Of a stretch of DNA of 29,910 nt, positions 3,639 through 29,788 are shown piece by piece. Each line of letters starts with the position of its first letter. Positions within the stretch are counted from its first letter, which is position 1. The notes below the pieces were generated by a model. That model had not been told where the DNA came from. It saw nothing but the letters and a program-made list of their open reading frames with translations, and ran no database searches. A program made the translations under genes and the position numbers. This DNA is from a virus (lineage: Duplodnaviria; Heunggongvirae; Uroviricota; Caudoviricetes). The stretch lies in the IMG/VR virus record IMGVR_UViG_3300045988_123188, one strand, 5' to 3'.

Positions 3639-7319
<3,681 letters not shown>

Positions 7320-7345
<26 letters not shown>

Positions 7346-7865
7346 TCAGCAACCCCGGTATCAGTTCATCCAGCGCGGCTGCTTTGTTCATGGCTTTGAT
7401 AATATCCCGTTTCAGGAAATCAATATGCCGGTTATCCAGCTCAGGAAAACGTCGCTGCACCGACAGAGGAATACCGTCGAGAATACTGGATATTTCCCTT
7501 GCTATACGCGACAGCACGAAAGTACAGAATGCGGTTTCCACCACTTCAGCCGATTCTTTGGCATTTTTCAGTTCCTGCGCCGTCGCCTGAGCACGAGTCA
7601 GGCGATGGCGCTCAAATTCAAGTGTTCCGGGGTGAAGATCTGCCTCGCTGGCCAGCCGCAGTTCTTCAACCTCCCGGCGCAGCTTTTCGTTCTCAATTTC
7701 AGCATCCCTTTCGGCATACCATTTTATGACGGCGGCAGAATCATAAAGCACCTCATTACCCTTACCACCACCCCGCAGAACGGGCATTCCCTGCTCCTGC
7801 CAGTTCTGAATGGTACGGATACTCGCGCCGAAAATGTCAGCCAGCTGCTTTTTGTTGACTTCCAT
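7320..7865 (-). CDS. Nu1: terminase small subunit Nu1
   Basis: 181 aa, MEVNKKQLADIFGASIRTIQNWQEQGMPVLRGGGKGNEVLYDSAAVIKWYAERD..., lambda Nu1 with N-terminal wHTH. Confidence 0.92.
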
Positions 7866-8075
7866 TGTTCATTCCACGGACAAAAACAGAGAAAGGAAAC
7901 GACAGGGGCCAAAAAGCCCGTTTTCAGCACCTGTCGTTTCCTTTCTTTTCAGGGGGTATTTTAAATAAAAACATTAAGTTACGGCGAAGAAGAACGGAAA
8001 CGCCTTAAACCGGAAAATTTTCATAAATAGCGAAAACCCGCGAGGTCGCCGCCCCGTAACGGCCCGGATCGCCGG
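7866..8075. other. closed cos site (cosB next to Nu1, cosN cohesive-end sequence at ~8043-8054, cosQ side toward 8075)
   Basis: Plus strand carries AGGTCGCCGCCC, the reverse complement of the lambda 12-nt cohesive end GGGCGGCGACCT, flanked by sequence recalled from lambda left end (CGCGGGTTTTCGCTATTTATGAAAATTTTCCGG as reverse complement) and right end (CGTAACGG...CCGGAAAGGACCCGTAAA). Confidence 0.85.
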
Positions 8076-8127
8076 AAAGGACCCGTAAAAATGATAATGG
8101 TTATCATTTTCAATGTAGTCCGGTTTC

Positions 8128-8300
8128 TTCCACCATCGCACCGGACAGGCGACTATGAGGGGACAACGCCGCGCTCCGTTAACGCGGTAAACCCCGGTGT
8201 GTATCGTTTTTGATTATCCCCGCACACTCGCGCAGAGGAGTCTCCCTGTCGGGCTGCGGTCTCTGTTAATGAGGGAATACAGCGACGATACGGCGCATGA
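8128..8300. repeat. direct repeat copy A (~170 bp, ~80% identical to copy B at 9913-10090)
   Basis: Shared blocks CCGGTGTG(T/C)ATCGTTTTTGATTAT, CCGCACACTCGCGCAGAGGAGT, CGTCGGGCT, GGTTAATG, ACGGCGACGAT in the same order and orientation. Confidence 0.7.
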
Positions 8301-8412
8301 TGTGTCAGGCTTGAATACATTTATCCGTTAAAAGGGATATCAGTTAAGTTATCCCGTGTAGGGTATAAGCCATTATCAAAGCCACTCAGTAGCGAATGGC
8401 TTTTGTAATGGA

Positions 8413-8862
8413 CTATTTAATTAGTGATGCTGCGTATTCGATTAGATATAACTTAGGTGCCAACCAGATTTTTAACCATGTCATATTGGTTACTACAGCA
8501 ATAATAAAACTTACCCACAGAACAAAAACTGCTGCTAATGGTAAGATAAGAAAACTAATCTCACCGTTACTTTCCCAAATCATGGTCGGTTTGTATTTAG
8601 GCTTCCCTTTTTCCCATGACCATCCTTCATTATCGAACTTACCAATTTCAACTTTTTGGTACTGTTTCTTCATAAACCAAATAACCAGCGGGATTGTTGA
8701 AATGGCTATTAATGTTTTAATCAGGCTATCAACCATATTCCATACCAGCAACTGATGAACAACATCCGGAATCTGAGCCTGACTGAATGCAATGGCGGAA
8801 TCAATTCCATCGCTGGCCTTCTTCAATAAATCAACAAGAATTTTATTTGCTTCTTCTTGCAT
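8413..8862 (-). CDS. small membrane protein, two predicted TM helices, unknown function (cassette gene 2)
   Basis: Start moved to internal ATG (MQEEANKILVDLL...) because the track start is a TTG; AGGA SD upstream; hydrophobic segments IKTLIAISTIPLVIWFM and ISFLILPLAAVFVLWVSFIIAVV. Confidence 0.5.
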   Translation of the reverse strand: MQEEANKILVDLLKKASDGIDSAIAFSQAQIPDVVHQLLVWNMVDSLIKTLIAISTIPLVIWFMKKQYQKVEIGKFDNEGWSWEKGKPKYKPTMIWESNGEISFLILPLAAVFVLWVSFIIAVVTNMTWLKIWLAPKLYLIEYAASLIK

Positions 8863-8986
8863 GTTTATATCCTGTAAGTTGTAAGCCTGTTCGAGAAAAA
8901 TAAACAACTACGAGAGACAGAAAAAAATATCTCAGGCTCTCTTTCTATAAGCTTTTAGTTGAGGATGTTCTGCAAAACAAAACTGG

Positions 8987-9847
8987 TTAGTTATGTAACT
9001 GCTTCCGGAATACAACAGCCGACGAGCTACAACGTAAAATTCGTTTGATTGTGGCAGTTGAGGAAACAGACTTGCATTTCTCAACATCATCAATAATGAC
9101 CACATCCGGTACAGGAATGACGCGGGTATGCAATGTTTTTGCACTAATAACATCACAGCCATTCAGTGGTCGAATATCTGCATCTTCAGGCACTACCAGA
9201 AGCACACGTTTTTCCGGTGCAGAAAAGCCAGCAGCAAGAGTGCGTGACAATAAAGTCATTCCGCTGCGTGGCTTCATACAAATTTCAGAAATATGATTCT
9301 TTTCGTCCAAATGATGCTGGACATCATTTTTATCATCACTCAACAACTCTGCTGTTAATACAATCCCTGCTGTCTCAGATTTCCAGGAAATGCTGATATC
9401 CTGATCATCTGCATCAACATCATATTTCATCGAGTAAGGACTAAAGCTACGTCCAACGAACGCATCATTTACCAGTACACGCCCACCCTGTCTGACCTGA
9501 AAGTCAACGCGCCCGGAAAGCTGATTTGCTGTTACAAGCAATGCCTTTTTTCTTTTTGTTTTATTGCTCATTGCCACCAACTGTTCAGCCATCTCTCTTG
9601 TCACACTACCAGAAACTCTTCCTTGCATTTTCACAGAAAATTTTCTGGATGTAGTAGCATCGACATTAAAAAATCTGGATGTAATCAGGCAGTTATTAAC
9701 AATTGGCATCAGCTCACTTACGATTGTAAAAAATTCCCGGTAAAGCTCATTTTGCTTTTCAACACACAGCTTTCCACAATCGTCCAGCTTACGCTCAAGA
9801 GCACTTAACCTTTCCATTATTGAATTAATTTTTTGCAACTCTTTCAT
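8987..9847 (-). CDS. hypothetical 286-aa cytoplasmic protein, N-terminal coiled-coil-like region, no domain recognised (cassette gene 1)
   Basis: ATG at 9847 (MKELQKINSIMERLSALERKL...) preceded by AGGAGG; the 373-aa track ORF is an artefactual extension through repeat B and a palindrome; C-terminal VLLVVPEDADIRP...VIPVPDVVIIDDVEKCK is beta-rich and acidic. Confidence 0.55.
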   Translation of the reverse strand: MKELQKINSIMERLSALERKLDDCGKLCVEKQNELYREFFTIVSELMPIVNNCLITSRFFNVDATTSRKFSVKMQGRVSGSVTREMAEQLVAMSNKTKRKKALLVTANQLSGRVDFQVRQGGRVLVNDAFVGRSFSPYSMKYDVDADDQDISISWKSETAGIVLTAELLSDDKNDVQHHLDEKNHISEICMKPRSGMTLLSRTLAAGFSAPEKRVLLVVPEDADIRPLNGCDVISAKTLHTRVIPVPDVVIIDDVEKCKSVSSTATIKRILRCSSSAVVFRKQLHN

Positions 9848-9870
9848 CAAAACCTCCTGACAAAGATACC

Positions 9871-9888
9871 GTGCGACCACGGTCGCAC
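9871..9888. promoter_or_regulatory. sopC-like palindrome GTGCGACCACGGTCGCAC (putative SopB/ParB centromere site), ~25 bp upstream of the 286-aa gene start
   Basis: 8-bp inverted repeats around a 2-bp AC core; one of five near-identical copies; resembles the F sopC motif TGGGACCACGGTCCCA as I recall it. Confidence 0.6.
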
Positions 9889-9912
9889 GCTCCTGAATAC
9901 ATGCCCTGTTTC

Positions 9913-10090
9913 TTCCACCCTCGCACAGGACTGGCGAGCATGAGGGACAAACCCGCGAATCATTAGTGCGGTAAAAACCCGGTGTGCATCGTTTTTGATT
10001 ATTTCCGCACACTCGCGCAGAGGAGTTCCCCGTCGGGCTACGGTCATGGTTAATGCGGAAATACGGCGACGATGCAGCGCGGTATTTAAT
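9913..10090. repeat. direct repeat copy B (partner of 8128-8300)
   Basis: See copy A; copy B carries a perfect 9-bp inverted repeat TATTTCCGC...GCGGAAATA that is imperfect in copy A, with one compensatory pair. Confidence 0.7.
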
Positions 10091-10108
10091 GTGCGACCAC
10101 GGTCGCAA
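10091..10108. promoter_or_regulatory. sopC-like palindrome GTGCGACCACGGTCGCAA
   Basis: Second copy, directly abutting repeat B. Confidence 0.6.
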
Positions 10109-10127
10109 ACGAGAAACAAAGAGATTT

Positions 10128-10439
10128 TTATGCTACAGAGGAACAAGCTGGCGGGTAATTCAGCGTAGTGAATACCGGCATCTCCATCTTGTATGCGTAA
10201 TGATACTCAGCAGTTGCTCCAGCAGACGCTTTCCAGCCAGGAAGCATCAAAATAGCATCAGCACAACGAAGCATTGCAAAGCAAATATCCATGTATTCAC
10301 GTTGTGTCAAACCATTAGGCAAAGTGGCTGGATTCAAGACAGAGTGACCATGTCGTGACAAACGATCTGCCTCTTTATTAAAGGCGTCACGATTAAAGTT
10401 CTCATATCCCGTCATTGGCCCGGCAATATAAATTTTCAT
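10128..10439 (-). CDS. DUF4406-like / nucleoside 2-deoxyribosyltransferase-like small protein
   Basis: MKIYIAGPMTGYENFNRDAFNKEADRLSRHGHSVLNPATLP... pattern typical of this family by recall; ATG confirmed. Confidence 0.55.
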   Translation of the reverse strand: MKIYIAGPMTGYENFNRDAFNKEADRLSRHGHSVLNPATLPNGLTQREYMDICFAMLRCADAILMLPGWKASAGATAEYHYAYKMEMPVFTTLNYPPACSSVA

Positions 10440-10480: not shown

Positions 10481-10918
10481 TTAATTCAGGCATTGCGTCT
10501 TGATGTATTCCTGCAAGTAGTTAACCTGCGCAGTTATCCTGTCGATCCCACTTCGGAGACGGTAATAATTGAGTTCAGCATCTGCTGTAAGTCTTGGGCT
10601 TTCTCCATCGCCCATGCTGCTGGCTCCGGTCGTTGACTTTGCACAGGTGGCGGCGACTTGCAGGCGCTTACGCCCAGCAGAAACATCAGCACGGAGGCTT
10701 TCGATAGTCGCGTTAGCATCAGCAAGCTCCTTTGTATATCTGGCATCGAGTTCTGCTACGTCACGTTGACGCTTCTGCATATCAGCGATTGTGGATGTGG
10801 CTTTATCGCGCTGCTCTTTGTAGGAGATGGCGTTATCACGGTAATGATTAACCGCCCATGACAGGCAGACGATGATGCAGATAACCAGAGCGGAGATAAT
10901 CGCGGTTAACCGACTCAT
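10481..10918 (-). CDS. Rz: spanin inner-membrane subunit Rz (i-spanin)
   Basis: [39 protein letters not shown]... nearly identical N-terminus to lambda Rz by recall; ATG at 10918. Confidence 0.85.
10534..10719 (-). CDS. Rz1: spanin outer-membrane lipoprotein Rz1 (o-spanin), embedded in Rz in the +1 frame
   Basis: [36 protein letters not shown]: signal peptide, lipobox Cys, proline-rich; nested-in-Rz architecture. Confidence 0.6.
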
Positions 10919-11006
10919 GACATCAACACCCCAACGGCCAGAAACCACGGCCACGCATCGTTGCCATTAAATGCGAGCAACGCTGCCATGAAAAAGAAAA
11001 TCATGC

Positions 11007-13192: not shown

Positions 13193-13210
13193 GTGCGACC
13201 GTGGTCGCAC
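13193..13210. promoter_or_regulatory. sopC-like palindrome GTGCGACCGTGGTCGCAC (inverted core GT)
   Basis: Third copy, between the small-gene cluster and the late promoter. Confidence 0.6.
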
Positions 13211-19712: not shown

Positions 19713-19938
19713 TTTCTTGTGCGACCACGGTCGCACCCTCTCTGATTTCCAAGTAACGCTTAATCCAAAGATTTTCTATATGCTTATTACCTGGCTGATT
19801 TGATAAATACCAATCGGCAATTACAGACTGCTTATTACTATCTGGTCGTGTCCTGTAACCACAAGTTGGACACCAGATAACATATTCATTTCTTACCCCC
19901 GAATACCTTAATTCTGGCTTCGACGGTTTCCTGAACAT
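19693..19938 (-). CDS. hypothetical zinc-ribbon-like small protein (81 aa, CLCK...CPTCG)
   Basis: Start at internal ATG (MFRKPSKPELRY...). Confidence 0.4.
   Translation of the reverse strand: MFRKPSKPELRYSGVRNEYVIWCPTCGYRTRPDSNKQSVIADWYLSNQPGNKHIENLWIKRYLEIREGATVVAQENENNAI
19719..19736. promoter_or_regulatory. sopC-like palindrome GTGCGACCACGGTCGCAC overlapping the RBS region of the gene at 19712 and the 3' end of the upstream gene
   Basis: Fourth copy. Confidence 0.6.
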
Positions 19939-19945
19939 AACTTGT

Positions 19946-20656
19946 TTACAAAGGCAGAATGGCACTTCCTGCCCGATGGCGTTTGATGATTTCACTGCGC
20001 TTCTCCGCCGCATTTAATAATGCAGTTCGATTTAAGCTCAGACATCGCGACTTAATTAAAAGCCAGCGTTCTTTATAATCTTGTCTCCAGCTATCAATAG
20101 ATATATTCAGTAGAAAACTCAGATGCCTGTCCTGTTCTCTCTCATCAACTGCCTCAGCACACGTAAGTTCTGATTTAACCTGCTGTGCCGCGTAATAAAT
20201 CAATTTCCGCATGGCTTTTTTCGTGGAGGCCTTCATTTTTTTAAAGCCGCCCCCCGAATGAGCAACCAGAAAATCAAGCCATAACCACTGACAAACAATC
20301 ACATCATTGTTGTAATCAGGCTTGCATCCGTAGCAATAATAAAGCCAGGCTGATTCCTCGTTATTCAACTGACCAATAGCCCTGCGCCAGCTGGCGCTCT
20401 GAAAATCAATATCAGTGAGCAACATTGATGATTGTTTAAATGTTTTCCCCTGGTGGAATCTAACCGGCTCAGCAGGAACGGACACTTCGTATGAGTTATC
20501 ATCCCCCACACTGATTGACCGGACTGGTTTATTGTTAAACCGTCCTGACCTACCGAGACGCATCTGCTCAAGCTGGACCTCCAGAATGCCACGCTGGCGA
20601 TAATGAACATCAGCCAATGCCGTAGAGACGCAGCTGCGTATATACTCAAGCTCCAC
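19946..20656 (-). CDS. hypothetical 236-aa protein first downstream of cro; possible Q-like late antiterminator by position only
   Basis: Track ORF; the Q assignment rests only on my recollection that N15 immB is cB-cro-Q and on the PR'-like leader at ~13.1 kb; no sequence motif recognised. Confidence 0.3.
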   Translation of the reverse strand: MELEYIRSCVSTALADVHYRQRGILEVQLEQMRLGRSGRFNNKPVRSISVGDDNSYEVSVPAEPVRFHQGKTFKQSSMLLTDIDFQSASWRRAIGQLNNEESAWLYYCYGCKPDYNNDVIVCQWLWLDFLVAHSGGGFKKMKASTKKAMRKLIYYAAQQVKSELTCAEAVDEREQDRHLSFLLNISIDSWRQDYKERWLLIKSRCLSLNRTALLNAAEKRSEIIKRHRAGSAILPL

Positions 20657-21800: not shown

Positions 21801-24800
21801 ATGACATTAAACGATTTCTATGCGGATCGCTTTGGCAGCGATCCGTTCTCGCTAATTGAAGCAGCACGGGATGAACTAACCGAGCTGGCACAGATGGCTG
21901 GTATCAACTGGCCTGCCTGTTCCGACAACATCCAACTCAACCCTCGCGGGGGGGTTGAGCGTTACTCTTCATACAATAAAACATCTCCAGAAGCTCTCGA
22001 AAAGAGCCTGAAAGGACGCGTAGAAATTTACTCCCGGCTGGAACACAGCAAAGGGATTGATTACCCGTTCATTAACTTCGTCCATAAAGGCAGCGATGCT
22101 GGCTCATGGAGCGGTTTCTCCTTCCTGTTTTCTGAATATCGCCGTGAGCAACAACGGAATAATGCGACCGTGGTCGCACAACCGGAAGAAGAACGGGAAA
22201 GAATAGAACGTCAGGCCGAAGCACGTCGTCGCCGTGAAGAACAAAAACGAATTAATGACCTGAAAAACAACCAAATGGACCATGAACGTTTGCTGGGATG
22301 GCTGGCATTCCACAGCGCGTGGGAACATGCTCCGGCTGAAGACGGCTCATGGCCATATGCGATTAAAAAAGGTATTCGTGACGTTTTTAGTTCATGTGAT
22401 GTGCGTCGCGTGACCAGTCACGACAGTGCGAAATGGAGTCGGGGACCAACCACATATATGGCTATCCCTCTGGCTCACCTGGACGGTCGTTACGATGGTC
22501 GTATTGTGGGTTGGCAGCGAATCGACAAACAAGGTGGGAAATACCAGACCAGCGCAGTAACCAGCGGCGATTTCGTCGGTGCCTGCTTTGTTATCGGTGA
22601 GCTGAAAGGGGCGCAAAACATCGCTGTTACAGAAGGTTTTGCTACTGGTGCATCCATCTGGCTTGCCACGAAAAAAGATAAACGCTTTGACGCTGTGGTT
22701 GTCGCTGTATCCGCTAACAACATGGTTCATGTTGTGGAACAACTGGTAAACATGTACCCGGCGGTAAAAATCACCTGCGCACTGGATAATGACCGGAAAT
22801 CTGCCACAGAAGGAAAAGGGAATACCGGCCTGCGGACTGGCTATGAAATCTTATCGAAATTCAACGATGTCCGCTGCGTCTATCCAACTTTTGAAGACGA
22901 TCCGCAAATGGAGTGCAGTGACTTCAACGACCTGCACAAACTACGTGGACTTCGTGAAACAGCACGTCAACTATTTGCAACAGCAAACCGCCTGAAAACC
23001 GGTACTGATTTGCTATCTCTGACGCTCAACCGCCTGAAGACAATTAAGCGGGATAACCGTCGTACTTTTGCCAAAGAGCTGCTGAGAGCGGTGGATATTG
23101 GCATGCTAACCTGCCCGGTTCCTAACAGTCCGTCAGATTTATTTAACATGTTCTGCATCGTTCTGCGTGAAATGGGACTGGAAAATATCTATCGCGCTAC
23201 GGTAAAAGACCACATTGCCCGTCGCCTGAATAAAAAGTGCCGTATTGCCCAGGCTCCGCGCTCTTTCAGCGAACGCATAACTGATCCCAATAAACGCCCT
23301 CAACATATCACCTATAAGCGTTTTGAAACTTCGGTAATGACCGATGATCTCCTGAAGTACGTGCAATCACTACAGGGGATAGTCATCGTCCGTGCTGGTA
23401 TGGGTTCCGGCAAATCTACTGGATTGTTACGACCGTTAATGCATAGCTCAGAACGTGGTATCTCTGTTGCTCACCGTGTCTCCCTTATTGGTGGCCTGTG
23501 GGAAATGATGACAGAAGGAAAAGGTGTAAAAGCCGATATCCTGCACTATCAGGACCCTGGCTATCAGGAAATGGCTCCATACGCCAGTAAACTGACCATC
23601 TGCATAAACTCGATTGTTAAAAACTGCTGGCAACCGTTGATGCGCCAGCACGACTATTTTGGCTTTGACGAGGCCACACAAGGGCTACGTGCCGTTCTTT
23701 CCGGTCGGGCTATGGAAAACCCAGTGGCTGTATTCAATACGCTAATTGACGCGCTGGCCAGAACGGAACAACACCCAATAATGGTGGATGCTGATGCGAA
23801 CGATCTGCTGGTTGACCTGGCTGAACTGGCTATGAAACGCCGTGAAGAACTAGGTTTACCGGCATGGCTGCAGATCCACGTAATTGAATTACCTGTTGAT
23901 GTTCGCAACCGCGAAACAGGTGAGCCAATCCGGGTTTTTTATACAGAAAAAGATCGCATCATGACCGAGGTGGTGAAAGCTGTATCGGATGGCGAAAAAA
24001 TCATGTTGGCCACCGACAGCTCCACCTTTGCAGAAGATGTGACAGCCACCCTGAGAATGCATTTTCCTGGTAAGAAATTTCTGTGTGTAAACCAGAAAAA
24101 CAAACCAGAGCCAGAAGTTGAAGCATTTACCAATCAACCGAAAAAGATGGTCAAAAAATACGACGGCCTGATTTATAGCCCGTCTATTTCATCCGGCGTG
24201 TCGATTGAGCAAAAACATTTTGACCGTCATTTCGGCATGTTCTGTGGTGAAGTTGTACCCAGCGACGCAGTGCAAATGCTACGCCGCGACCGTACAGCAA
24301 AAGAATTTATTATCGGCTTTGATAAAGCTCGTGCAAAACGTGAAACTGACCCGCAAAAAATAGAACGAGCATTCGCCCAGGCATTGCTTGCTACCGCAGG
24401 TATGAACGGTGAACTTACGGATGTCGTTTTCGATGGCGACCGTATATCAATGGGGGTGGCCAATACCGACTTTACCAGGATGAAAATTAAAGCAGCCGCA
24501 ATTGAAGCGACTGCGCGTAACGACTACGCCAGCAACATGATCTGCATCATGCACAGCGACGGTTATAAGGTATCACCGCTGGCCACCGATTATGCTGCGA
24601 ATGATATCGGTAAAGATCTGCGTAAAGAAGCGCGGGATATTGTGTGGGAACAGACACTGGATCTGCACCTCAATACAGAAACTCCACAAGAATCAGAGCG
24701 TGAAAAACTGCTAAAAAAACGCGCGCTGACGCTTGAAGAACAGGCAAAACTTGTCCGCTGGGATATTGAAAACGAACTGAAACTACCGGTTGAAGAAGGC

Positions 24801-25796
24801 ACGCTGAAATTCTATTTCGATGGTGCTCGAGACAAAGTTCGCCGCTATGAAACAATGCTTTTAGATGAGGTAACAGCTCGTCGTTACGACCGGGAAGAAG
24901 CAGCCATCAATTTTACCTACGCATACCGTCAGGCGGGACAGTGGCAATATTTTGTAGTGACCGCGATGACTCGCGAGCAGGCTGATGATGTCTTTAAAAC
25001 TAAATTCCCTGGAATAATCGATCACAAGGTAAAAGCTACTCCTACTGTTGAAGTCGGGGCGCGCGGTTTCTATGCGCTTAAATCAGCAACTCTCCGGCAG
25101 TACTTTATCGACTGCGGTATCAACCCTGAGACTATGACCGGCGAGGCGACTCAGGAGCGTCTCAAATTCGCTCGAGATAACCTCATGACAGCCGAACGCC
25201 GTGACCTGTTGAATAACGTTCTGCACATTGGTGGTTTTATGACGCCAAAAGGGAAGCCTAAAGTGCCGGAAGCGTTGTTTAAAAACATTTGCGACTCTCT
25301 TGGCCTTAAAACAGGTAAACGTCGCGGCAGAGACGGCGATAAGCGTCCAACCTTGCGTTTTGTTGAGCCTGAATCAGCGGCATTTATGCTGGATATTCTT
25401 GTTCAGCGTCAGAAAGATGGCCTAACCCTAAAAACGCGTAAAGCCGAGAAGACAGCCATCGAAATGGATCGCGATTTGGATCTCAATATATATATGGATG
25501 ATAAAACGCGATCCACAAACGAGCAGGTTCAAAACGCCCCTCATTCAGTAATTTCTGAGGCTTTGGCCGTGTTGCCAGTGGCTGTACCTGAGTCCTGGGC
25601 GATGAGTGCGCTTTCCAGTGAGGAGTTGGCCACTATGTCATCATGGTCATCAGCCAGCATAGCTATGACGTTTGCATCTCTGTACCTCACAGAGTTCATG
25701 GATCACCTTTCCAGCAATGAGCTGCGGCGGTTACGTGAATACATTACGGGGAATAGCTCATGCAGCTACGAAGAGCAGGGCGCTTTCTTTGGGTAA
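21801..25796 (+). CDS. repA: replication protein RepA, multidomain primase-helicase (N15 RepA-like)
   Basis: 1331 aa; Toprim/primase-like segment (NIAVTEGFATGASIW...TCALDNDRKSATEGKGNTG), Walker A GMGSGKST, Walker B-like FGFDEA; size and architecture match my recollection of N15 RepA (~1320 aa). Confidence 0.8.
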   Translation: MTLNDFYADRFGSDPFSLIEAARDELTELAQMAGINWPACSDNIQLNPRGGVERYSSYNKTSPEALEKSLKGRVEIYSRLEHSKGIDYPFINFVHKGSDAGSWSGFSFLFSEYRREQQRNNATVVAQPEEERERIERQAEARRRREEQKRINDLKNNQMDHERLLGWLAFHSAWEHAPAEDGSWPYAIKKGIRDVFSSCDVRRVTSHDSAKWSRGPTTYMAIPLAHLDGRYDGRIVGWQRIDKQGGKYQTSAVTSGDFVGACFVIGELKGAQNIAVTEGFATGASIWLATKKDKRFDAVVVAVSANNMVHVVEQLVNMYPAVKITCALDNDRKSATEGKGNTGLRTGYEILSKFNDVRCVYPTFEDDPQMECSDFNDLHKLRGLRETARQLFATANRLKTGTDLLSLTLNRLKTIKRDNRRTFAKELLRAVDIGMLTCPVPNSPSDLFNMFCIVLREMGLENIYRATVKDHIARRLNKKCRIAQAPRSFSERITDPNKRPQHITYKRFETSVMTDDLLKYVQSLQGIVIVRAGMGSGKSTGLLRPLMHSSERGISVAHRVSLIGGLWEMMTEGKGVKADILHYQDPGYQEMAPYASKLTICINSIVKNCWQPLMRQHDYFGFDEATQGLRAVLSGRAMENPVAVFNTLIDALARTEQHPIMVDADANDLLVDLAELAMKRREELGLPAWLQIHVIELPVDVRNRETGEPIRVFYTEKDRIMTEVVKAVSDGEKIMLATDSSTFAEDVTATLRMHFPGKKFLCVNQKNKPEPEVEAFTNQPKKMVKKYDGLIYSPSISSGVSIEQKHFDRHFGMFCGEVVPSDAVQMLRRDRTAKEFIIGFDKARAKRETDPQKIERAFAQALLATAGMNGELTDVVFDGDRISMGVANTDFTRMKIKAAAIEATARNDYASNMICIMHSDGYKVSPLATDYAANDIGKDLRKEARDIVWEQTLDLHLNTETPQESEREKLLKKRALTLEEQAKLVRWDIENELKLPVEEGTLKFYFDGARDKVRRYETMLLDEVTARRYDREEAAINFTYAYRQAGQWQYFVVTAMTREQADDVFKTKFPGIIDHKVKATPTVEVGARGFYALKSATLRQYFIDCGINPETMTGEATQERLKFARDNLMTAERRDLLNNVLHIGGFMTPKGKPKVPEALFKNICDSLGLKTGKRRGRDGDKRPTLRFVEPESAAFMLDILVQRQKDGLTLKTRKAEKTAIEMDRDLDLNIYMDDKTRSTNEQVQNAPHSVISEALAVLPVAVPESWAMSALSSEELATMSSWSSASIAMTFASLYLTEFMDHLSSNELRRLREYITGNSSCSYEEQGAFFG
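22163..22178. promoter_or_regulatory. sopC-like palindrome TGCGACCGTGGTCGCA embedded in repA coding sequence (encodes NATVVAQ)
   Basis: Fifth copy; the only one inside a gene. Confidence 0.55.
25466..25514. other. candidate replication origin inside the 3' part of repA: inverted repeats GGATCGCG/CGCGATCC flanking (AT)5, with three GATC sites
   Basis: Seen in sequence; N15 ori is reported to lie within the 3' region of repA (recall). Confidence 0.35.
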
Positions 25797-26999: not shown

Positions 27000-27110
27000 T
27001 GACGTGCGCGTCGTTTTGACGGTAAAGTTTACTCCGCTACGGTAAATCCCGTAGCCGGGCGTAGGAACCCGAGTAAATGAAGCGCACAACACGCGCCAGC
27101 GTGTTTTTTT
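27000..27110 (+). ncRNA. candidate small antisense regulatory RNA (c4/CA-like) of the anti-repressor locus, ending at an intrinsic terminator
   Basis: Hairpin GCTACGG-TAAATC-CCGTAGC (~27036-27055), terminator AACACGC-GCCA-GCGTGTT + T7 (~27088-27110); 7-nt blocks CGGTAAA and GTAGGAA are complementary to TTTACCG and TTCCTAC ~130 bp downstream in the icd leader (~27181-27200). Confidence 0.3.
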
Positions 27111-27273
27111 GTGTGTAAAATCTGCGTACACCAAATTTATGGTGGCTCAGATGGGGCAGCTTTTAGCTGGCCGGTTTCTTCGTTTACCGGTATTCCTACC
27201 CCCGTCTGGGCTACCGCCATATAGAGCGTAGGAACTCTGGTGGTAGCACGACCAATTAAACGGAGTGCATACC

Positions 27274-27874: not shown

Positions 27875-29788
27875 TTATCCGAAATATGTCAGCCATGCTA
27901 ACTGCATTGCTGATATAGGGCTGTTTGCACTGCCGGACCAAGCATAATTCTGGCCATTATAATGAAACTCAACAACGTATGAGCCATCACCAATATTTCT
28001 CACAGGCTTAAATACCGGCTTAGATACAGGTGAAGAAGGCGCGGGCGGTTGCTGTTCTTCTACGCTCTCTTCCTCTTCCTCTTCCTCTTCCTCTTCCTCT
28101 TCCTCTATCTCAATTTCGTCGTCATCCAGATCGTCATCCTCTGATAATTCATCCGTCTGTTCAGGTATTGCTTCCAGCTCTTCTTCGTCAGGCATAACGA
28201 TTTCTGGAGAATCTATTTTCAGCTGCCATTGTCCATTTTCGCCAACAAATTGCCCCAGAGCATCAGCAGCAAATTCCAGGTATCGACTAATCATTGTAGG
28301 GCTAAATTTGAATGCTCTTAGAGTGCTGTTCGTGATTTTTATAGAGGGGTCATGCTCTACCAGCTGCTTAACTGTGTTATGCAGACGAACCCCGGCATCT
28401 CCTCTGGCGAATCCTGGCATTTCGTCATCAAGCTGCTGCAATGCTTCCAGCCTGGTATTTTCGTTTCCAGTATTTGGCCTCCATGTCTTTGAGAAGTTGG
28501 CCAGCTTGAATTGCTTATAGTGTAATTGAGTGTTTTCATCGTCATGGCCTAAAATTTCCATAAAGAAAACATCCTCATCTACGTTTTTCCAACGAGGATC
28601 TACGCGGAAAAACATTTCATACGCAATACGGGCATAAATAGCACGACTATCTTTATAAACACGGCGGTCATCTTTGAAAAATGATTTAACCCACGGGTTA
28701 AAAGCCTTTGCTAATATGGCATTAATCCGTCCGTTTTCAGAGCGTGTGTCGTTATCTCCATAACCTTTAACGACATCATCAAAATCAGATGCTGCTGGGC
28801 ATGAGCGAAGTACATTTATTAAATAAACAAATGTTTTTGCTTCGCATAATGTATATATTTTTCTGGTTATATCATCAGAAGTTCTTTTTTTTGCTTGGCC
28901 TAAAAAATCAACGGTATACTTACCAGAAACAGTAAATGTACCTTGATACATAATCTCAATCATTCGTCTTCCTGACAATGCAGCAAGTGCAAATGCCAAA
29001 GGAGCCATACCTGAACGAGTGTTTAGATTATTTAATGTAGCAGGGCTATTTATAATATCGTAAATAGCTTGCATATATTTAGGGTAATCAATGACCACCA
29101 CGTTACGTTTCTTATTGTGCAGAACGTCCGCCCATCGTTGCTGGATAGATGCGCGTTCGGCAGGGCTTAGTTGAAGATGATAGAGAATCTCATGGTTAAC
29201 TTTTAGCTGATTCAACTCCTCAAGTAAGGCAGATCCTTGCTGTAGTAATTTATATAAATAATCGCGCTTATCTTTCCAGTTATCGCTAGTTAAATCAGAT
29301 ATGGCGAATTGCCACTCTTTATATTTATTTGATAATTTTAATAACTTATTATGACTTTTGTTATCACCAATTCTGATATTAGATAAATCTTCTGATAAAG
29401 GGAGAATTAATTTTAATTTTGCCTGTAAAGCTGACATTCTCTGGCGAATATCGGCAGCAGGTAGAGAAAGCCATGACAATAGCTCCTCATTATATAAAGG
29501 ATACTTTTCAGATAGGCGATGTATATTTTTTTCAAAGCTATGATGAAGTTTATCATCAAACCGTTTTCTGGCCCTGCTCATATAGGCATTGAAGGTGTTG
29601 GCTGTAATTCTTTTTTCTAATCCTTTCCCCCTAAACTTTCGCTTATCATTAAATAATGCATTTTTAAATTTTAATGCAACAGCCTTTATTTTTTTTGTTT
29701 TTTCCCCTTGAGGACGGTCAGAGTTATCTATTGACTCAACATCGCTAACAAGTGAGTTTATTAATTCACCGATTTTTACTTTGCTCAT
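27875..29788 (-). CDS. telN: protelomerase TelN (telomere resolvase)
   Basis: 637 aa; MSKVKIGELINSLV...KRITANTFNAYMSRARKRFDDKLHHSF..., YLYKLLQQGSALLEELNQLKVNHEILYHLQLSPAERASIQQRWADVL, NTRSGMAPLAFALAALSGRRMIEIM, RINAILAKAFNPWVKSF...RVYKDSRAIYARIAYEMFF (catalytic Tyr region) match N15 TelN as recalled; SD GGAGAGGAAA. Confidence 0.9.
   Translation of the reverse strand: MSKVKIGELINSLVSDVESIDNSDRPQGEKTKKIKAVALKFKNALFNDKRKFRGKGLEKRITANTFNAYMSRARKRFDDKLHHSFEKNIHRLSEKYPLYNEELLSWLSLPAADIRQRMSALQAKLKLILPLSEDLSNIRIGDNKSHNKLLKLSNKYKEWQFAISDLTSDNWKDKRDYLYKLLQQGSALLEELNQLKVNHEILYHLQLSPAERASIQQRWADVLHNKKRNVVVIDYPKYMQAIYDIINSPATLNNLNTRSGMAPLAFALAALSGRRMIEIMYQGTFTVSGKYTVDFLGQAKKRTSDDITRKIYTLCEAKTFVYLINVLRSCPAASDFDDVVKGYGDNDTRSENGRINAILAKAFNPWVKSFFKDDRRVYKDSRAIYARIAYEMFFRVDPRWKNVDEDVFFMEILGHDDENTQLHYKQFKLANFSKTWRPNTGNENTRLEALQQLDDEMPGFARGDAGVRLHNTVKQLVEHDPSIKITNSTLRAFKFSPTMISRYLEFAADALGQFVGENGQWQLKIDSPEIVMPDEEELEAIPEQTDELSEDDDLDDDEIEIEEEEEEEEEEEEESVEEQQPPAPSSPVSKPVFKPVRNIGDGSYVVEFHYNGQNYAWSGSANSPISAMQLAWLTYFG
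28067..28102. repeat. perfect hexanucleotide microsatellite (CTCTTC)6 inside telN, encoding a poly-Glu run
   Basis: Six tandem perfect units on the plus strand, equal to (GAAGAG)6 on the coding strand, giving EIEEEEEEEEEEEEESVEE. Confidence 0.85.

Follow-up and report, generated by a model that had tools for sequence, protein, structure and literature searches.

A conserved non-coding element at the lysis/packaging junction of lambda-like phages, duplicated in an N15-like prophage, as a candidate folded segment of the late transcript

IMG/VR record IMGVR_UViG_3300045988_123188 is a 29,910-nt stretch of caudovirus DNA (Duplodnaviria; Heunggongvirae; Uroviricota; Caudoviricetes), hereafter the window, in which two imperfect direct repeats flank a two-gene cassette. 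An earlier note on positions 8,128 to 10,090, made from the letters alone, described an inverted repeat within one of the copies and raised the question of what the repeats are: a structured element under selection, as an RNA or as the site of a dimeric protein, or recombination scars delimiting the cassette. Based on sequence comparison, the two flanking repeats are diverged copies of a single element, here called E, which is conserved, non-coding, and ~183 nt long. We assign a probability of about 0.5 to the reading in which E folds as part of the Q-dependent late transcript and doubles as a homology patch for module swapping, and in which recombination duplicated E in this prophage. The two copies are located as follows.

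8117-8299, minus strand: element E, copy A (nhmmer 204.6 bits; covariance model 215.6 bits; 39 of 41 modelled pairs formed on the minus strand)
9902-10082, minus strand: element E, copy B (nhmmer 190.7 bits; covariance model 202 bits; 40 of 41 modelled pairs formed on the minus strand)

Repeat finding, alignment, nhmmer, and the covariance model all confirmed the direct repeats, and the covariance model identified no third copy in the window. In a global pairwise alignment, copies A and B are identical at 149/184 positions (81%). Read in the late sense, copy B lies 3' of Rz and a DUF4406 gene and 5' of the 286-aa cassette gene; copy A lies 3' of the cassette and of a terminator-like hairpin, ~60 nt upstream of cos and Nu1.

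Distribution and non-coding nature of E

We used copy B as a query against phage records; this analysis identified matches in 424 records, mostly Stx (Shiga toxin)-converting and lambda-like Escherichia/Shigella phages, with a single E in 422 of them and two copies in 2. The earlier note would have counted a single copy elsewhere against its structured element; the single-copy state refutes the idea of a cassette delimiter and leaves the structured element standing. Using copy A as the query, we identified E at 4545 places in 1912/5426 complete E. coli genomes (median 2 and up to 9 per genome), and the Prokaryotic Genome Annotation Pipeline (PGAP) places no annotation beneath E in any of the genome matches listed. 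In every annotated example, E keeps one orientation, with Rz on its upstream side and the small terminase gene or cos on its downstream side, and the Rz-to-terminase interval that contains it at times also contains accessory genes (bor, Rha/ant, DUF4406). The repeats are therefore a general landmark of the lysis/packaging junction rather than a feature specific to the cassette, and this landmark is duplicated in the N15-like plasmid prophage.

Within a scan of one genome per bacterial species (GTDB), genuine chromosomal copies of E occurred only in Escherichia. Lambda-type E was also detected in ~27 unrelated assemblies (Pseudomonas, Cohnella, Flavobacterium, Kitasatospora, and others; loci L124-L160), on contigs of ~3.5 or 48 kb. 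We read most of the non-Escherichia matches as lambda control DNA contaminating the assemblies, and two short contigs with E of a non-lambda type are probably contaminants as well. N15 itself lacks E according to both nhmmer and the covariance model.

Lambda and HK629 have a divergent copy of E between bor and lambdap78, and the cryptic prophage DLP12 of K-12 MG1655 has a lambda-type copy between borD and ybcV (NC_000913 579008-579177; L168:3009-3178). The DLP12 copy begins a few nucleotides past the ybcV stop, upstream of borD, where there is no annotated feature. At the plus-strand 3' end of E, lambda-type copies have a near-consensus promoter, TGGACA/TACAAT (L002:1784-1810 in HK629, and the equivalent place in lambda). 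This promoter is annotated upstream of bor and is absent from most other copies; the copies that have it are the same ones in which the minus-strand fold described below is degraded.

E is non-coding: every reading frame, on both strands, is interrupted in at least one copy, its variability has no 3-base periodicity, and its common variants are separated by frequent indels of 1, 2, and 16 nt. In an alignment of 84 distinct copies on the late-sense strand (A4), frameshifting 1-nt indels split the major variants, affecting 43/84 copies at column 110 and 30/84 at column 143. Although some records annotate a “hypothetical protein” or “Rz-like spanin” over E, orf48 of VT2-Sakai covers it, and the minus-strand frame of copy B is open across E into the 286-aa gene, these variants and the absence of PGAP calls at E in the sampled genomes make a small protein-coding gene, or the remnant of one, scarcely credible.

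An Rfam 15 search of the whole window at gathering thresholds reported only C4 and isrK near 27 kb and no family at E, and a permissive search of 9850-10140 reported only Twister-P5 on the plus strand, at 12.4 bits against a threshold of 37.6 (E-value 3.9). Literature searches with sequence strings and for ybcV/borD small RNAs (sRNAs) and prophage sRNAs found no publication in the library searched that prints the E sequence or describes an RNA at the locus. A promoter and terminator scan identified no sigma-70-like promoter within or immediately before either copy, and the 3' end of E has no intrinsic terminator; the only terminator-like calls beside E are overlapping calls on one SopB palindrome.

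Conserved pairing within E and its strand

The perfect 9-bp inverted repeat that drew attention to copy B is real (TATTTCCGC at 10000-10008 and GCGGAAATA at 10055-10063), and one inner A-T pair extends it to a perfect 10 bp (10000-10009/10054-10063) enclosing 44 nt. Perfect inverted repeats of at least 10 bp occurred in 13/1000 dinucleotide shuffles of copy B. The homologous arms of copy A, which form helix H2 of the model below, differ from those of copy B at three pairs.

8215-8223 TATCCCCGC / 8271-8279 GAGGGAATA, minus strand: H2 arms of copy A

At the fifth pair, C-G of copy A corresponds to T-A of copy B, bearing out the compensatory change that had been pointed out. On the plus strand, 7/9 of the copy A arm pairs are Watson-Crick, and on the minus strand 8/9 pair, one of them as G.U. 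The longest perfect inverted repeat in copy A is 7 bp, a length equalled in 430/1000 shuffles. By themselves, copies A and B are weak evidence for structure; the support comes from the wider family.

The model tested on A4 consists of a long interrupted hairpin formed by H1 (7 bp), H2 (9-10 bp), and H3 (5 bp), a small hairpin H5, and a 3' H-type pseudoknot with stems S1 and S2.

9986-9992 GCATCGT / 10069-10075 ACGATGC, minus strand: H1 of copy B, enclosing H2 (A4 columns 11-17/95-101, 99.1% paired; RNAalifold)
8201-8207 GTATCGT / 8285-8291 ACGATAC, minus strand: H1 of copy A, compensatory relative to copy B
10000-10009 / 10054-10063, minus strand: H2 of copy B (A4 columns 23-31/79-87, 97.2% paired; found independently by RNAalifold)
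10016-10020 / 10038-10042, minus strand: H3 of copy B (A4 columns 44-48/67-71, 98.3% paired)
9953-9957 / 9967-9971, minus strand: H5 of copy B (A4 columns 116-120/130-137, ~90% paired, the alignment of this region being uncertain for VT2-type and lambda-type copies)
S1 9920-9924 / 9934-9938 and S2 9903-9909 / 9925-9931, minus strand: pseudoknot of copy B, spanning 9903-9938
S1 8135-8139 / 8149-8153 and S2 8118-8124 / 8140-8146, minus strand: pseudoknot of copy A (from the sequence and A4 columns)

Pair 12-100 of H1 is U-A in 39 copies, U.G in 36, and C-G in 5. H2, which stacks upon a second conserved 7-bp stem, has changes on both sides at 3 pairs and the series U-A / U.G / C-G at three pairs, as at pair 26-84 (U-A 41, U.G 40, C-G 3). 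In H3, pair 46-69 is C-G in 45 copies versus U.G in 37; H4, a weak 3-bp apical stem within H3, is 82.7% paired and doubtful. In RNA order, the predicted pseudoknot comprises the S1 5' arm, 2 nt, the S2 5' arm, 0 nt, the S1 3' arm, 10 nt (GGUGGAAGAA), and the S2 3' arm; this modelled stem order and these loop lengths (L1 2, L2 0, L3 10 nt) are those of an H-type pseudoknot. S1 (5 bp) is 95.0% paired and has 3/5 pairs changed on both sides, with a U-A / U.G / C-G series of 47/17/15 at pair 154-170, and S2 (7 bp) is 95.9% paired, with pair 164-184 occurring as G-C (47), U-A (20), and G.U (10). RNAalifold, which cannot draw pseudoknots, recovered H1, H2, and the 5-bp core of S2 without hints. The invariant unpaired stretches UAAUCAAAAACGAU and GGAAGAAAC suggest a factor that recognizes sequence besides shape. 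An alternative plus-strand helix, GTGTGY/GCACAC, clashes with H1 and H2 and was dropped.

Across A4, 95.4% of the 3379 minus-strand pair cells form a standard pair, versus 92.2% when partners were shuffled (0/500 shuffles reached the observed value). Pairs changed on both sides number 11, versus 7.0 ± 1.6 in shuffles (10/500), and controls with a slid register were merely 33-56% paired. In a tree-based null that permuted substitutions among paired columns only, the expected pairing was 75.1 ± 2.7%; we restricted this null to paired columns because placing substitutions on any column is too lenient. A second sample of 26 further distinct copies, obtained with a different anchor pattern, reproduced the result (97.1% paired on the minus strand versus 88.8% on the plus strand) and added a new G-C to A-U double change in H1.

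The pairing is specific to the late-sense strand. On the plus strand, the same model pairs are 87.6% paired, and nearly all of the mismatches there are C.A, corresponding to G.U on the minus strand. For the identical alignment, RNAalifold gave -24.7 kcal/mol on the minus strand versus -4.5 on the plus strand. The minus-strand minimum free energy is lower in 74/84 copies, and more model pairs form on the minus strand in 80/84; the three copies that favor the plus strand are the lambda-type ones. Along a neighbor-joining tree, changes from a Watson-Crick to a wobble pair produced 58 minus-strand G.U versus 15 plus-strand G.U, whereas the matching transitions in unpaired columns were 94:79 (Fisher p = 2e-4 against 58:15, a rough value given recombination). 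This asymmetry therefore favors a late-sense RNA (or single-stranded DNA of that strand) over a double-stranded protein-binding palindrome.

A binding site for a dimeric DNA-binding protein, one of the two options that the earlier note had offered for the stem, is highly improbable. The perfect palindrome-like repeat in copy B and the protein-binding palindromes that adjoin it (the SopB sites described below) would suit such a site; however, arms 44 nt apart are too distant for a simple dimer operator, they covary rather than keep one sequence, and G.U departures on one strand only are inexplicable by recognition of double-stranded DNA. The other option, selection on the stem, finds support in the homologues, in which H2 is 97% paired over 84 copies. 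E shows the conserved pairing, the compensatory and wobble changes, and the specificity for the transcribed strand that generally mark a structured RNA, at moderate strength because its diversity is shallow and recombination is frequent. Judging from these sequence comparisons, E is probably under selection as a folded late-sense RNA.

Recombination, the proposed role of E, and alternative explanations

E marks the point of phage module swapping. Among 199 copies with usable flanks, we identified 21 terminase-side and 19 Rz-side flank types in 55 combinations, and within E 555/1596 informative site pairs fail the four-gamete test (Rmin 18). Alternative non-homologous flanks on both sides and crossovers within the block are the properties of a lambdoid module-boundary homology patch. 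In experiments, lambda and DLP12 exchange their lysis and terminase genes by “relaxed” homologous recombination through Red/RecA, across 3.35 kb of homology within which E lies (De Paepe et al. 2014, PMC3945230). The suggestion that the repeats are recombination scars is therefore correct in one respect, as E is itself a heavily used recombination joint, and incorrect in another, as the repeats are a pre-existing element and not scars of the cassette. Traits of a miniature inverted-repeat transposable element were absent: no inverted repeat joins the ends of E, and the flanks have no common target duplication. A recombination role and an RNA role are compatible, since homology-driven exchange is expected at a conserved functional block.

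In the mechanism that we propose, a Q-dependent late transcript on the minus strand of the window would include the lysis genes, then the region from copy B through the cassette to copy A, then cos and the terminase genes. Because E has no promoter-like site and copy A is preceded by a terminator-like hairpin, E would be transcribed only within the antiterminated late message. Its fold may act in cis on the polycistronic late mRNA; the likeliest single role would be that of an endonuclease processing or stability signal of the RNase III type at the border of the lysis and morphogenesis messages. The conserved E would double as a homology patch for Red/RecA swapping of modules and morons, and recombination in one N15-like plasmid-prophage lineage would have left the two copies that bracket the two-gene cassette.

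Interrupted RNA hairpins of ~20 bp occur within long phage polycistronic transcripts as the T7 intercistronic RNase III signals and the lambda sib retroregulator. E is likewise predicted to form an interrupted hairpin between gene blocks. H1, H2, and H3 together would provide 21-23 bp with two internal loops; RNase III signals comprise about two helical turns of mostly double-stranded RNA, often with an internal loop, and have no sequence rule. E differs from these signals in lacking sequence similarity to them and in having an extra hairpin and a pseudoknot. By this analogy, a processing or stability role is a tentative suggestion and, on balance, unlikely. The broader proposal is that E works as an RNA of the late operon that has so far gone undescribed and occurs even in lambda and K-12; we consider its chances evenly balanced. 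If the fold is functional, a third of sequenced E. coli genomes would contain an RNA element that their annotations lack, and this element would lie in the best-studied phage operon; its carriers include every Stx-converting phage examined in detail, lambda, and DLP12 of K-12. It would also offer a mutable handle on two questions: how lysis and virion assembly divide a 25-kb late message between them, and why recombination between the lysis and packaging modules happens at a single precise place.

Several observations weigh against a folded late RNA. The family is shallow, being confined to one genus with 85% mean column identity and an effective sequence number of 1.53. Pair states changed on both sides include 12 that are canonical and 6 that are not, which is moderately above the 44% expected by chance, and the two most phylogeny-robust measures are modest (10/500 and 27/500). 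Recombination inflates event counts, such that the counted events are non-independent and the p-values rough. The lambda/DLP12-type copy fits the model poorly (30/40 pairs) and slightly favors the plus strand. Single-sequence folding z-scores for both copies and both strands were -1.1, -0.5, -1.0, and +0.2; the folding that had been recommended as a check thus ran no better than shuffles, and thermodynamics alone does not prove structure here. The distance from E to the next gene is highly variable, so there is no obvious single downstream target. The processing role is drawn by analogy, and our literature search found no transcript, cleavage, or phenotype data on E.

Of the alternatives, one would deny E any RNA function: E would be a shared DNA homology patch or linker that persists because the phages sampled are the recombinants it gave rise to, its stems would be leftover palindromes, and its wobble pairs would reflect a mutation bias of the non-template strand. 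The idea of such boundary or linker sequences is said to go back to Juhala et al. 2000 and Clark et al. 2001, and E resembles module-boundary patches in being a conserved non-coding block between unrelated modules, with many flank combinations and internal recombination. The sharp homology boundaries, the 21 x 19 flank types, and the Rmin of 18 inside E all suit a patch, as do the insignificant folding z-scores, the excess of C>T (58) over G>A (31) in unpaired columns of the minus strand, and the experimental efficiency of homeologous recombination in this region (PMC3945230). On the other hand, the 58:15 wobble asymmetry in paired columns exceeds the 94:79 of unpaired columns, paired columns change less (2.13 versus 3.19 substitutions per column), pairing is kept at 95.4% versus the 75.1% expected, and several helices show a full compensatory series. 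A patch without function should also decay or vanish in some lineages, whereas E, at ~183 nt, has fixed ends, a fixed orientation, and strand-specific pairing, none of which a mere linker needs. We therefore consider a functionless patch unlikely, albeit deserving of serious attention. A discrete sRNA with its own promoter, made in lysogens or on induction and acting in trans on host or phage mRNAs like other prophage sRNAs, is less likely again. In its favor, sRNA genes abound in prophage late regions (PMC4104026), e.g., the Pas sRNAs; C4 and isrK RNAs occur elsewhere in the window; and a genome may have up to 9 copies of E. Like E, the prophage sRNAs of pathogenic E. coli AgvB, AsxR, Pas, Esr41, STnc100, isrK, and C4 are non-coding RNAs of lambdoid prophage late or immunity regions and are restricted to Escherichia/Shigella; unlike E, they lie near Q/PR' or the immunity region with promoters and terminators. 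E has neither and matches no Rfam family, and with a terminator-like hairpin upstream of copy A it would be silent without Q antitermination.

The fold could also form in single-stranded DNA of the minus strand, as a priming or recombination signal in late rolling-circle replication or as a DNA-capture site. G.T pairs are tolerated in folded single-stranded DNA too, so the strand asymmetry does not separate it from RNA, and E is at a hotspot with extra genes on either side. However, E is accompanied by neither a recombinase nor a primase-recognition motif nor an HUH-type nuclease, its sequence is conserved beyond its structure, and the strand that has the structure is also the one with the sense of a very strong late transcript, so that RNA is the simpler explanation; we regard the DNA signal as improbable. 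A further reading takes E as a strand-specific folded recombination or capture site, resembling attC without a known integrase, through which lambdoid phages would acquire and exchange cassettes at the lysis/packaging junction; the window would then display a captured cassette between two such sites. It is compatible with a fold that could be DNA as well as RNA, with the extra genes that accumulate on both sides of E, and with flank combinations that number in the dozens. Integron attC sites and E have in common direct repeats round a cassette, a strand-specific fold that tolerates non-Watson-Crick pairs, and a location where accessory genes are found. They differ in that attC conserves structure whereas E conserves sequence, and E is single-copy in nearly all phages, with one cassette only. 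By eye, the ends of E (GTCCGGT.../...CAGCGCA) have no attC cores R''(RYYYAAC)/R'(GTTRRRY), and E is ~183 nt long versus 57-141 nt for attC. Among the genes examined round E in the window and the other loci, which are lysis, terminase, and accessory genes, there was no integron integrase, although no systematic integrase search was made. The attC-like site is very improbable, and a functional RNA in the late transcript is the likelier of these two readings.

Duplication, SopB-type palindromes, and prophage context

The double-copy loci found are this window, PhiR46_1, YDC107_1, and the IMG/VR loci L010 and L036, all with the same layout and cassette; the duplication is restricted to one N15-like linear-plasmid prophage lineage. 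The cassette (8413-9847) is between the DUF4406 gene and cos, a frequent place for accessory or defense genes, and it is followed in the late sense by the hairpin that precedes copy A.

8987-9847, minus strand: cassette gene 1, open reading frame (ORF) of 286 aa with no Pfam or PADLOC match
8413-8862, minus strand: cassette gene 2, ORF of 149 aa with no Pfam or PADLOC match
8381-8405: GCCACTC...GAATGGC with a trailing TTTTG, a terminator-like hairpin separating copy A from the cassette

Based on its hydrophobic stretches, the 149-aa protein looks like a membrane protein. In YDC107_1 and L010, an internal deletion of ~830 bp fuses the two cassette genes into a 198-aa ORF with the same N-terminus; a different cassette in these two loci is thereby ruled out, and no swapping between the copies of E was seen. 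The frame of the 286-aa gene is open for 87 more codons upstream (9848-10108, minus strand), through copy B and a SopB site to a TTG. The resulting 373-aa ORF is spurious, and PhiR46_1 has the gene annotated from the ATG at 9847. The hairpin at 8381-8405 was not called by the consensus terminator scan; it is within a ~110-bp flank common to Ayreon-type phages, and the homologous flank in Ayreon is annotated as a terminator.

In L010 (6003-6188 versus 5053-5238), the late-sense 5' half of the position-A copy, which is the hairpin domain, has the copy B variants TATTTCCGC/GCGGAAATA and GCATCGT/ACGATGC, and its 3' half, the pseudoknot domain, is A-type. This mosaic looks like gene conversion or crossover between the copies. 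In L036 (10744-10856), the position-A copy retains only model positions 104-185, and its truncated end adjoins a third SopB palindrome.

Copy B is bracketed by two short inverted repeats that share a perfect 17-nt direct repeat.

9871-9888: SopB-type inverted repeat GTGCGACCACGGTCGCAC, terminase-proximal to copy B and called terminator-like in the minus-strand scan
10091-10107: second copy of this inverted repeat, Rz-proximal to copy B

The palindrome GTGCGACC(AC/GT)GGTCGCA(C) occurs five times in the window, at 9871-9888, 10091-10107, 13193-13210, 19719-19736, and 22162-22179; besides the two bracketing copy B, one is just downstream of Q and one is inside the RepA-like gene. GTGCGACCACGGTCGCA(C) is the SopB centromere site of N15, IR1/IR4, and GTGCGACC(AC/GT)GGTCGCAC is identical to the published IR1/IR4 core (PMC7205306 Table 4), a likeness to N15 IR1-IR4 and F sopC that concerns the palindromes and not E. 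Given this identity in sequence and the several dispersed copies of GTGCGACCNNGGTCGCAC in an N15-like replicon with protelomerase and RepA-like genes, the 17-nt repeats are, as far as sequence allows, N15-type SopB centromere sites and not a target duplication. The sites are dispersed in N15 as well, where the whole genome has only four; N15 differs in having a single IR4 at the equivalent place, after DUF4406 and methylase genes and with no E, whereas here the site is duplicated round copy B. A SopB site lies within 40 nt of the terminase-side end of E in 16 loci, and in N15-like phages the SopB sites apparently move in company with E.

The window is a lambda-like prophage in reverse, with Q, S, R, Rz, and Nu1 encoded on the minus strand. 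The presence of a protelomerase and a RepA-like protein together with a lambda-type Q identifies the source as an N15-like linear-plasmid prophage that carries lambda-type late genes, and not an integrated lambdoid prophage.

7323-7865, minus strand: Nu1 (Pfam)
8043-8054, minus strand: 12-nt cosN overhang, the reverse complement of GGGCGGCGACCT, marking the lambda-type right end beside copy A
10484-10954, minus strand: Rz (Pfam)
19949-20656, minus strand: lambda-type Q antiterminator (Pfam)
21801-25796, plus strand: RepA-like Toprim/origin-helicase protein of 1331 aa, resembling N15 RepA
27878-29788, minus strand: protelomerase of the TelK/TelN family, telN (Pfam)

We take 8043-8054 to be lambda cos by comparison with the lambda cos sequence. 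In N15 the sop genes adjoin telN, an arrangement that would put the cognate sopAB genes here past the right end of the window. Near telN, two adjoining Rfam matches exceed their gathering scores, isrK at 27036-27109 (plus strand, 62.5 bits) and the C4 antisense RNA at 27135-27221 (plus strand, 73.6 bits); this stretch is presumably an anti-repressor control region, as in P1/N15-type immunity.

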